Origin: Parcubacteria group bacterium
GTDB taxonomy: Bacteria > Patescibacteriota > Minisyncoccia > Phycocordibacterales > UBA2135
DNA length: 64,000 bases
NCBI GenBank assembly: GCA_016180525.1
Contig: JACPBB010000002.1
Span: forward strand, 48,824 to 112,823
Direction of reading: 5' to 3'
The stretch's first letter is position 1, and the number at the start of each line of letters is the position of its first letter. Below the pieces are notes generated by a model, which was not told where the DNA came from, ran no database searches, and saw only the letters and a program-made list of their open reading frames with translations. The translations under genes were made by a program, and so were the position numbers. This document shows positions 8,112 through 36,797 of this stretch, one piece after another.

Positions 8112-8145
8112 AAAACCGCTCTGGTATACATCAGAGCGGTTTTTT
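8112..8145 (+). terminator. Intrinsic terminator after spoVR
   Basis: AAAACCGCTCTG...CAGAGCGGTTTTTT. Confidence 0.75.
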
Positions 8146-8146
8146 C

Positions 8147-8347
8147 TTTTGGTGCGCAGGAGAGGAATTTCACTACTCGTCGCTCCGCCAGTTGGCGGAG
8201 CTCCTGCGCTTTCAAACCACTCGGTTTGAAGAATCCTCCACGGGAAAACTACAGTTTTCCCGGCCCCTTTCGTGTTCAAATCCTCACCGTGCTCAAAAAC
8301 ATCACAACAAAAAAACCGTACTGTTTGTGAGTACGGTTTTTTTGTTT
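8147..8347 (-). mobile_element. tRNA-Leu-anchored small structured element bounded by a 20 bp duplicate of the tRNA 3' end
   Basis: TTTTGGTGCGCAGGAGAGGA at 8147-8166 and 8345-8364; internal core homologous to 33971-34129. Confidence 0.65.
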
Positions 8348-8434
8348 TGGTGCGCAGGAGAGGATTTGAACCTCCACGACCTTGCGGCCACTAGCCCCTC
8401 AAGCTAGTGCGTCTACCAGTTTCGCCACCTGCGC
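8348..8434 (-). tRNA. tRNA-Leu(GAG)
   Basis: GCGCAGG...CCTGCGC-A-CCA, anticodon arm CTAGC-TTGAGGG-GCTAG, long variable arm. Confidence 0.95.
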
Positions 8435-8513
8435 AAAAATCAGTATTTAGTATAGAGTATTTAGTATGAAGTTTCAAGAAAACTAAAAACCTTTCGATGC
8501 TGTCGAAAGGTTT

Positions 8514-9005
8514 TTAGTTTTCTTTTTCTGATTTTGCCTCTGCCGCAAGGACAACGGGTCCTTTGCTTGTACTCTCTGCTTCGACCGCTTCACTATTCTC
8601 GGCCGCAAGTACTGTGGGCAACTCTTTCTTCTCTTCTTTCGGCTCAACGGGAACAAAGTCAGCGAGTCCTTTCATTTTTCTCCTGATTTCCCGAGCTGTT
8701 TTTTCGCGAATGTAATAGAGCTTGCTCCGACGAACTTTAGAGCGACGAATGACTTCAATTTTATCTATAACCGGTGAGTAGAGCGGAAAAATTTTCTCAA
8801 CCCCAACTCCGGAGGCAATTTTCCTTACAGTAAAAGTAGCTCCTGGCTCTCTGCCATGCTTACGAGCAATGACGAGCCCCTCAAACGCCTGAAGGCGTAT
8901 TTTGCCTTTTTCATCCTTTATTTTCTGCCACACGCGTACAGTGTCCCCCGCCCGTATGAGAAGCGCGCGTCGTTCGTTTATATTAACCGGTGAAAGTGTA
9001 ATCAT
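8514..9005 (-). CDS. rplS: 50S ribosomal protein L19 with acidic C-terminal extension
   Basis: [44 protein letters not shown]. Confidence 0.97.
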
Positions 9006-33897: not shown

Positions 33898-33969
33898 GCG
33901 CCCATCGTTCAACGGATAGGACATAAGATTGCGGATCTTAAAATCGAGGTTCGATTCCTCGTGGGCGCA
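33898..33969 (+). tRNA. tRNA-Arg(GCG)
   Basis: GCGCCCA...TGGGCGC-A, anticodon arm TAAGA-TTGCGGA-TCTTA. Confidence 0.92.
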
Positions 33970-33970
33970 T

Positions 33971-34129
33971 TAGCACGAAGTGATAATCTTCCGCGAGGAA
34001 TTGAATGCGAGGGGGGTCGGAGAAACTGTAGTTTCCCCGTTGAGGAAGGCAACGAGGAGCACGGCGATGAGTGTTAGAAAACCGTGGGTTTCCAAGGAGT
34101 AAGATAGCGAAGCGTCCTCGTGGGCGCAT
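33971..34129 (+). mobile_element. tRNA-Arg-anchored small structured element bounded by a 15 bp duplicate of the tRNA 3' end
   Basis: TCCTCGTGGGCGCAT at 33956-33970 and 34115-34129; core homologous to the element behind tRNA-Leu. Confidence 0.65.
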
Positions 34130-36539: not shown

Positions 36540-36797
36540 ATGTGGTATTACGTATATATACTTCGTTCATTAAAGGATAAAAAATTTTATATAGGATATA
36601 CTACTAATTTAAAATCACGATTTGAGGCACATTCAAAAGGGCATGTAGAGTCAACAAAGAAAAGAGGTCAACTAAAAATTGTATATTCCGAAGCGTGCCT
36701 CAATAAAAAAGACGCGTTGCATCGTGAAAAATATTTTAAAACACATCATGGTAAACAATTTTTATATAAACGCCTCAAATCGTATTTAACAGGGTGA
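36540..36797 (+). CDS. GIY-YIG nuclease family protein
   Basis: YVYIL.S.....YIG.T.NL..R...H..G...STK....YSE......A..RE. Confidence 0.9.
   Translation: MWYYVYILRSLKDKKFYIGYTTNLKSRFEAHSKGHVESTKKRGQLKIVYSEACLNKKDALHREKYFKTHHGKQFLYKRLKSYLTG

Follow-up and report, generated by a model that had tools for sequence, protein, structure and literature searches.

A gene-less repeat family with target-matched antisense arms at tRNA and protein genes of Patescibacteria

tRNA-linked repeats and the element behind tRNA-Leu(GAG)

The tRNA-linked repeats (TLRs) of Escherichia coli have been on record since 1978 (Egan and Landy 1978; Rudd 1999; both as cited in PMC8144298). In its passages on these units, that 2021 article recognises 22 TLRs in E. 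coli, each identified by a copy, 18-19 bp long, of the end of the upstream gene, assigns them no known function, and describes the rrB TLRs as transcribed and processed. The mode of action of rttR is given as unknown in the pertinent part of bioRxiv 10.1101/2024.07.17.603846, and the current version of PMC10542128 holds no passage on RtT. The element described here, which lies behind a tRNA-Leu(GAG) gene of a Parcubacteria group bacterium, resembles the TLRs (the 178-bp tyrT repeats, RtT (RF00391), and the rrA, rrB and rrF units) in being a gene-less unit of 100-200 bp behind a tRNA or rRNA gene and in ending with a copy of the host gene's 3' end, here 17 nt of tRNA and 3 nt of trailer. In K-12, a host-matched antisense segment likewise precedes a hairpin-rich core in the tyr, lys and arg TLRs; this segment is weak in the 5S unit. 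Unlike the TLRs, however, the Patescibacteria family also strikes protein genes on either strand and contains a mirror-covarying tract, and the cores show no sequence homology: our core profile did not match four E. coli TLR loci (best E 0.71), and RtT was not found in the source genome at E 1. Because the cores are unrelated, we describe the layout as TLR-like but do not assign the element to RF00391. Among phages, the RtT unit matched one Salmonella record only.

Other described systems share single traits with the element. Integrative elements with tyrosine integrases use a T-loop sublocation, bring replacement gene ends, and restore the working gene; the element has in common with them a putative T-loop junction, a restored working gene, a displaced old end and silent differences at protein targets, but it has no integrase or cargo, one core serves many unrelated targets, and its antisense arm is internal. 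Folded single strands are integrated in CTX phage via XerCD and at integron attC sites, and IS200/IS605 elements use DNA-guided targeting with fixed guides of 4-5 nt and without target duplication. In the model proposed below, a folded strand with a bubble, or an internal guide, would similarly direct one strand exchange. Unlike IS200/IS605, the element has a target duplication, and the Y1 transposase (PF01797) of IS200/IS605 and REP/RAYT systems is absent from its source genome, which is 97% complete and may have held one in the past. Group II introns and retrons differ in that no reverse transcriptase match was found in the element or the source genome. A group I intron reading was rejected, the core being too short and the junction having no G-U.

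The window, the whole 64,000-nucleotide stretch analysed (contig JACPBB010000002.1, positions 48,824 to 112,823), comes from a 946-kb assembly. The element is 198 bp long, gene-less and on the minus strand. Its layout, read from the sequence, and that of a second copy are as follows (positions within the window).

8449..8477, minus strand: sigma-70-like promoter match upstream of the tRNA (10/12, a consensus match only)
8348..8434, minus strand: tRNA-Leu(GAG), intact, the host gene
8345..8371, minus strand: working (first) copy of the target, from G53 to CCA plus 3 A
Between 8365 and 8364, minus strand: inferred junction between tRNA 59 and 60 (position from family statistics)
8306..8346, minus strand: terminator-like hairpin 1, centre of the long fold-back
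8286..8305, minus strand: degenerate inverted copy of the tRNA acceptor strand and trailer (the two arms match at 38/49 positions)
8274..8285, minus strand: antisense arm GAGGATTTGAAC, exact complement of tRNA 8360-8371 (tRNA 53-64)
8265..8270, minus strand: mirror purine tract, predicted from covariation as third strand of an intrastrand triplex with core hairpin 1
8241..8262, minus strand: core hairpin 1, with purine arm, 4-nt loop and pyrimidine arm
8234..8241, minus strand: conserved box GTGGAGGA (conservation partly imposed by the search patterns)
8211..8230, minus strand: core hairpin 2
8182..8201, minus strand: optional hairpin module, which differs among copies
8167..8173, minus strand: altered T-loop copy GTGAAAT (target GTTCAAA), forming a mismatch bubble against the antisense arm
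8147..8166, minus strand: spare gene end ("stub"), a 20-bp direct repeat
8112..8143, minus strand: terminator-like hairpin 2
33898..33969, plus strand: tRNA-Arg(GCG), host of the second copy
33970..34129, plus strand: second copy, with the same core, antisense arm 33994-34005 and stub 34115-34129 (core profile E 2.4e-12)

The tRNA end, terminator and antisense arm make up one long imperfect fold-back, and the element region folds much better than shuffled sequences (z -8.7). Contigs from public DNA runs (three runs of a single study, one possibly the source of the assembly) tile the element in overlapping pieces, none spanning the whole stretch, so that it is not an assembly artefact. The initial annotation of this DNA had named a terminator-like hairpin, a 12-nt T-arm complement, two further hairpins and a re-copied tRNA 3' end, all of which are present. 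Length, CCA and 198-bp spacing of the re-copy (8147-8166, from 8345-8364) stand as described, but its 20 bp comprise 17 nt of tRNA and 3 trailer A rather than tRNA alone. The same annotation rightly judged the unit too small to encode an integrase, its 198 bp containing no gene; it missed the third hairpin (8182-8201), the second terminator (8112-8143), the mirror tract (8265-8270) and the long fold-back, and did not recognise the layout of the E. coli repeats. A 9-nt complement to the acceptor strand at 8201-8209 was set aside as probably due to chance, sister copies being one change from the motif. Separately, a 20-bp perfect hairpin occupies 8477-8523, between the upstream ORF (8514-9005) and the tRNA promoter.

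An Rfam comparison, which the initial annotation had proposed, returned only tRNA at gathering level in the window, so that no family reaches its threshold on the element; sub-threshold matches, including DUF3800-VI, were weak and were rejected. No published description of this Patescibacteria family was found in a search that covered few subscription journals. It is a genuine and so far uncatalogued form of a type of unit that is known but has had no explanation.

Hosts, targets and patchy occupancy

Six of the 52 tRNA and tmRNA genes in the source genome carry a 3'-end duplication with an antisense segment, four with the core of the tRNA-Leu(GAG) element and two with other cores. The core profile gave six significant copies there: the four tRNA-linked ones, one at a displaced tRNA-Gln stub, and one in the 5' end of a glycosyltransferase-like gene, the last with a direct repeat of ~45 bp and its own 14-nt matched arm. 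At C1:157464 (tRNA-Gly) and C5:127994 (tRNA-Lys) of the same genome, and at loci L143 and L154, the arm-core-stub layout occurs with at least two unrelated cores. The tRNA-Gln(CTG) gene is followed by a 2.4-kb islet (C1:284990-287470, minus strand) that has the appearance of tandem accretion, comprising in order a 428-aa gene, a broken GIY-YIG gene, a first stub, a 109-aa gene, and an element with a second stub. Degenerate partial self-copies, with the core absent, follow tRNA-Pro (C1:152639), tRNA-Ile (C1:246929) and tRNA-Leu (C3:322625).

Beyond the source genome, the core pattern was present in 7 of 41 related genomes, and scans of larger collections found at least 120 loci in genomes (~330 estimated) and at least 120 in metagenomes (~1100 estimated). 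Patescibacteria lineages accounted for 75 of the 80 genome-scan records listed. A strict pattern occurred in 0 of 251 genomes of a phylum sample, in which only 13 genomes share the class of the source genome, itself also negative by this pattern; viral contigs gave 0 exact matches to three patterns. Altogether the family comprises 218 distinct copies with enough flank, 116 of them behind tRNAs of 39 anticodons. This breadth, together with the second copy at tRNA-Arg(GCG), whose arm is complementary to its host tRNA at 11 of 12 nt, upholds the early impression of a scaffold common to different tRNAs. The term "tRNA-anchored", used in the same annotation, suits many copies but is too narrow, since the ends of protein genes are targets too.

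Targets are found in tRNA and tmRNA genes and at either end of protein genes. Judging by names read from translations, C-terminal targets are rpsI-, rpmG-, rplL- and gapA-like genes, whereas glycosyltransferase-, fusA-, typA-, murD- and dnaK-like genes have elements at the N-terminus, on the opposite strand; copies at protein N-termini and at two tRNA-Phe genes run opposite to the host transcript. tmRNA-like 3' ends are targets at loci L112, L220, L273 and L333, and the L112 stub differs from its working copy at stem positions, as though it came from another allele. A conserved, structured non-coding target without an Rfam match recurs at loci L068, L086, L098, L113, L116, L281 and L300 (upstream of secA in L068 and L086) and is possibly an undescribed RNA gene. 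Similarity between cores was higher for shared than for different targets outside tRNAs (median 0.60 versus 0.50) and slightly so at tRNAs (0.53 versus 0.51), in a comparison that ignores kinship of hosts.

Being next to the outer host flank, the stub is probably the original end of the host gene, displaced. Across the 178 codons of 16 scored pairs (17 attempted), protein-gene stubs and working ends show 59 silent differences and 9 that change the amino acid, with 2 pairs identical; the silent share expected for a neutral stub is ~0.32, and the silent count is an overestimate, as codons were located through peptide motifs and stubs in decay are lost from it. Cases such as 8 silent and 0 other changes in 14 codons point to two alleles that were both once functional, and silent-only differences of this kind would be hard to get from a decaying duplicate. 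Some copies have identical duplications of 42-79 bp.

Occupancy of the target sites is patchy, and the empty alleles that the initial annotation had suggested seeking are present in relatives. At the rpsI-like site, a stub was found in 4 of the 24 loci listed, all at the same codon and one with a different core; distant genomes use this codon, and the site is empty in 16 of the 16 nearest relatives of one carrier. Of 17 loci for the rpmG-like site, 6 did not yield to parsing and one has a gap; among the 11 that were parsed, 2 are filled. tRNA-Leu(GAG) lacks an element in three family genomes; in a fourth, which is congeneric with one of those three, another core follows it. The silent differences and the mostly empty sites in relatives fit a mobile element that would bring a replacement gene end, and from such patterns we infer that the family is mobile.

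Antisense arm, junction and predicted triplex

The antisense arm follows the gene that it accompanies. Arms were scored identically against own and foreign targets in copies with enough flank (118 of 132 distinct copies from genomes and 101 of 117 from metagenomes), and with both sets pooled a match of at least 12 of 14 nt to the own target was found in 79 of 117 tRNA-linked copies, compared with 178 of 2288 control pairs. The tRNA-linked values were 49/68 versus 146/1700 in genomes and 30/49 versus 32/588 in metagenomes; those for other targets were 18/50 versus 18/1250 and 26/52 versus 7/624, respectively, in sets that share a few sequences and with an "other" class that includes RNA genes missed by ARAGORN. 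An own-target match this far above control pairs in two sets of copies corroborates the proposal, made from two copies in the window, that the segment is adapted to each host gene. A 12-of-14 arm is missing from about a third of tRNA-linked copies and from half to two thirds of the others.

The arm usually starts at G53, ends 5-7 nt ahead of the core in 63 of 67 loci, and complements ~7 nt to the left of the junction along with the first bases of the working copy. It prefers the working copy by 56:1, a measure that is partly circular, and the spare end is mismatched to it at target positions 3-4. At tRNA 55 and 56 stub and working copy are identical in 11/52 copies, whereas the five remaining T-loop positions reach 31-38/52. 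A mini-hairpin lies between tRNA 59 and 60 in 16 of these 52 tRNA-linked copies. From these mismatches and mini-hairpins, we read the junction as lying between tRNA 59 and 60, with a mismatch bubble probably built in. The fold-back that starts at G53 spans the whole arm (median 39 bp and 75% identity over 67 loci) and is often centred on the terminator; by tRNA position, the arm matches in ~40/52 copies at 53-63 and in 17-21/52 beyond 67. Arm mismatches are G-T in 24 cases and A-C in 14, a weak difference. GC skew in the element's orientation was noisy, being positive in 34/50 tRNA-linked, 4/11 N-terminal and 3/13 nested copies, and these mixed signs among copy classes speak against a strict replication-strand rule.

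Core hairpin 1 covaries (68 A-T, 57 G-C and 1 G-T), and the purine tract on its 5' side mirrors the purine arm, with A/A 70, G/G 49, A/G 11 and G/A 0 times in 132 copies; two copies lengthen all three tracts by one base. Three positions mirror-covary in the 117 metagenome copies (GG 108/AA 7, GG 43/AA 60 and AA 98/GG 13), in which the search pattern left the third tract free and which are related to each other, so that p-values exaggerate the signal. G stands opposite A once at each of these positions and T opposite A five times and once, whereas a sixth triad lacks covariation, with G opposite A in 42/117. The tRNA-Leu(GAG) copy itself has 6 triads of allowed triplets, with the mirroring third tract 5' of a purine/pyrimidine hairpin. 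Such three-strand mirror covariation is the pattern that a class I purine-motif intrastrand triplex predicts. As the repeats BoxC, PIT and TM-ECO are presented in the relevant sections of PMC4666352, the element shares with them the set of third tract, purine arm and pyrimidine arm in class I order, and with the class I purine motif the G-G-C and A(T)-A-T triplets. TM-ECO itself is class II and thus unlike the family core, which has only 5-6 triads and is embedded in a target-mirroring element; the word "tRNA" is absent from the main text of that paper.

The same sections of PMC4666352 state that RNA is unable to form purine-motif triplexes and that polymerases can be arrested by triplexes of the R type. 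The T-opposite-A substitutions fit the antiparallel purine motif, which is DNA-only; the complementary strand, however, could form a pyrimidine-motif triplex, which RNA can form, so a DNA form is favoured but not proven. GCGNAGC mini-hairpins, which are unusually stable in DNA, occur 62 times on the element strand and 3 times on the opposite one. The element strand also folds better with RNA parameters (123/128), and folding energy gives no distinction between DNA and RNA. In many copies, the bases that follow the GGAGGA box partly mirror the 5' arm of hairpin 2 (AGG/GGAA and GAG/GAGA; window 8211-8241), hinting at a second triplex-like module. The core can apparently move or be reused alone, because many cores sit within other repeats without arm or stub. 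Loci at which it lies inside palindromic repeats of this kind are L025, L050, L061, L096, L100 and L126, and L032, L039, L084, L091 and L127; we take these repeats to resemble IS200-like ends and endonuclease-associated REP-like repeats.

Proposed insertion mechanism and alternative explanations

On balance, though with confidence only a little above even, we favour the reading that the unit is a single-stranded-DNA element without genes, in which the arm probably serves as the splint for insertion at one bond and the gene that is entered is restored. This accords with the suggestion in the initial annotation of a non-autonomous element with target-matched, guide-like sequence. The moving form would be single-stranded DNA, probably circular. 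Its arm would pair with the element's own copy of the gene end except at a bubble; the mismatched stretch would give way to the host strand, and the arm could then guide, or splint from within, a single strand exchange. Displaced downstream, the former gene end would become the stub, with the element supplying its replacement. The predicted triplex and the mini-hairpin core may be a handle for a host enzyme acting in trans, for which a Xer-like tyrosine recombinase, present in the source genome, is a candidate, and new targets might be gained when the target is copied by folding back at its terminator hairpin. A bolder version, which we put forward tentatively and think rather unlikely, is an enzyme-less, self-reprogramming mobile DNA that would write its own guide by target fold-back and insert scarlessly for the gene at a guide-defined bond, with a triplex core either presented to a conserved host enzyme or itself catalytic, and with the E. 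coli TLRs and look-alikes in bacteria and archaea as its footprints.

The source genome has two tyrosine recombinase (PF00589) matches, ten GIY-YIG matches and no serine recombinase match. The 76 nearest downstream ORFs (76 of 134 loci; ORFs of at least 100 aa) include no recombinase, transposase or reverse transcriptase, and clusters of ORFs near the loci were of housekeeping types only, with no linked integrase; longer versions carrying a recombinase or nuclease, which the initial annotation had also suggested seeking, were not found. Small GIY-YIG genes lie near 4 of 134 loci, about the genome background. Among the public-run contigs listed, which drop rare variants, none showed an excision joint, a circle or an empty allele from within the population. 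Elsewhere in the source genome, small GIY-YIG genes beside tRNA-Ser-GCT (C1:254880-255077, L215) and tRNA-Phe-GAA (C1:362886-363095, L217) are flanked on one side by the intact tRNA and on the other by a duplicated tRNA 5' fragment that a hairpin interrupts, as a mirror-image cassette that duplicates the 5' end, and a third such gene is directly upstream of tmRNA. Stand-alone GIY-YIG genes of 70-90 aa with short flanking inverted repeats occur in the window at ~36546-36755 (plus strand) and in the source genome at C3:126104, C3:183904 and C4:6522.

The main rival to splinted insertion is a replication scar, which we consider unlikely: the core, as a predicted polymerase-arresting triplex, would provoke template switching and so produce a fold-back with a duplication, filled alleles would spread by natural transformation, a short crossover falling within the stub, and the arm would be a by-product rather than a guide. 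Such a history would account for whole-arm fold-backs centred on terminators and for the identical duplications in some copies, would draw on the capacity of R-type triplexes to arrest polymerases noted in that part of PMC4666352, and would make a dedicated enzyme, of which none was found, unnecessary. It is harder to reconcile with an arm that is best matched beside the core while the remainder decays, with a mismatch bubble at a fixed place, and with the use of one rpsI-like codon by distant genomes. A structured RNA co-transcribed with the host gene, such as a TLR-type small RNA or a processing decoy, whose arm would pair with the T-arm or whose stub would mimic a processing site, seems more doubtful still. 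Most copies are sense to a tRNA, the element strand is the better folded one with RNA parameters, and the E. coli rrA, rrB and rrF TLRs are described in the passages of PMC8144298 on these units as transcribed, processed and bound to Hfq and CsrA. Against this stand the copies that run opposite to the host transcript, the terminator that often precedes the core, the patchy occupancy, and substitutions that fit a DNA-only motif; the earlier alternative of a cis RNA for tRNA folding or processing likewise does not account for the copies that lie in protein-coding genes or occupy the non-coding strand.

That the units are deleted remnants of integrase-bearing islands, attL-attR scars at the T-loop, is very improbable and already largely refuted, even though a 3'-end duplication starting in the T-loop and a replaced gene end are hallmarks of integrative elements and one source-genome copy lies, with a second stub, at the far end of the tRNA-Gln islet. 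Remnants would not be expected to have a uniform small size, a target-matched arm, and a single conserved core shared by 39 anticodons and several protein genes, nor does an integrase adjoin any of 76 loci.

For TLR-type units in general, the analysis yields testable statements: the junction is defined (between tRNA 59 and 60, or at one codon), the arm follows the target, the displaced ends carry silent changes, relatives have empty sites, and the covariation of the core predicts a three-stranded DNA fold. Short tRNA 3' duplications annotated as att sites of islands can be such units, and a mobile-DNA reading would help to explain the E. coli tRNA-linked repeats. If the splint model is true, the family would be a natural system for DNA-guided insertion that preserves genes and carries a very small payload, and would offer a route for the exchange of conserved gene ends between genomes.
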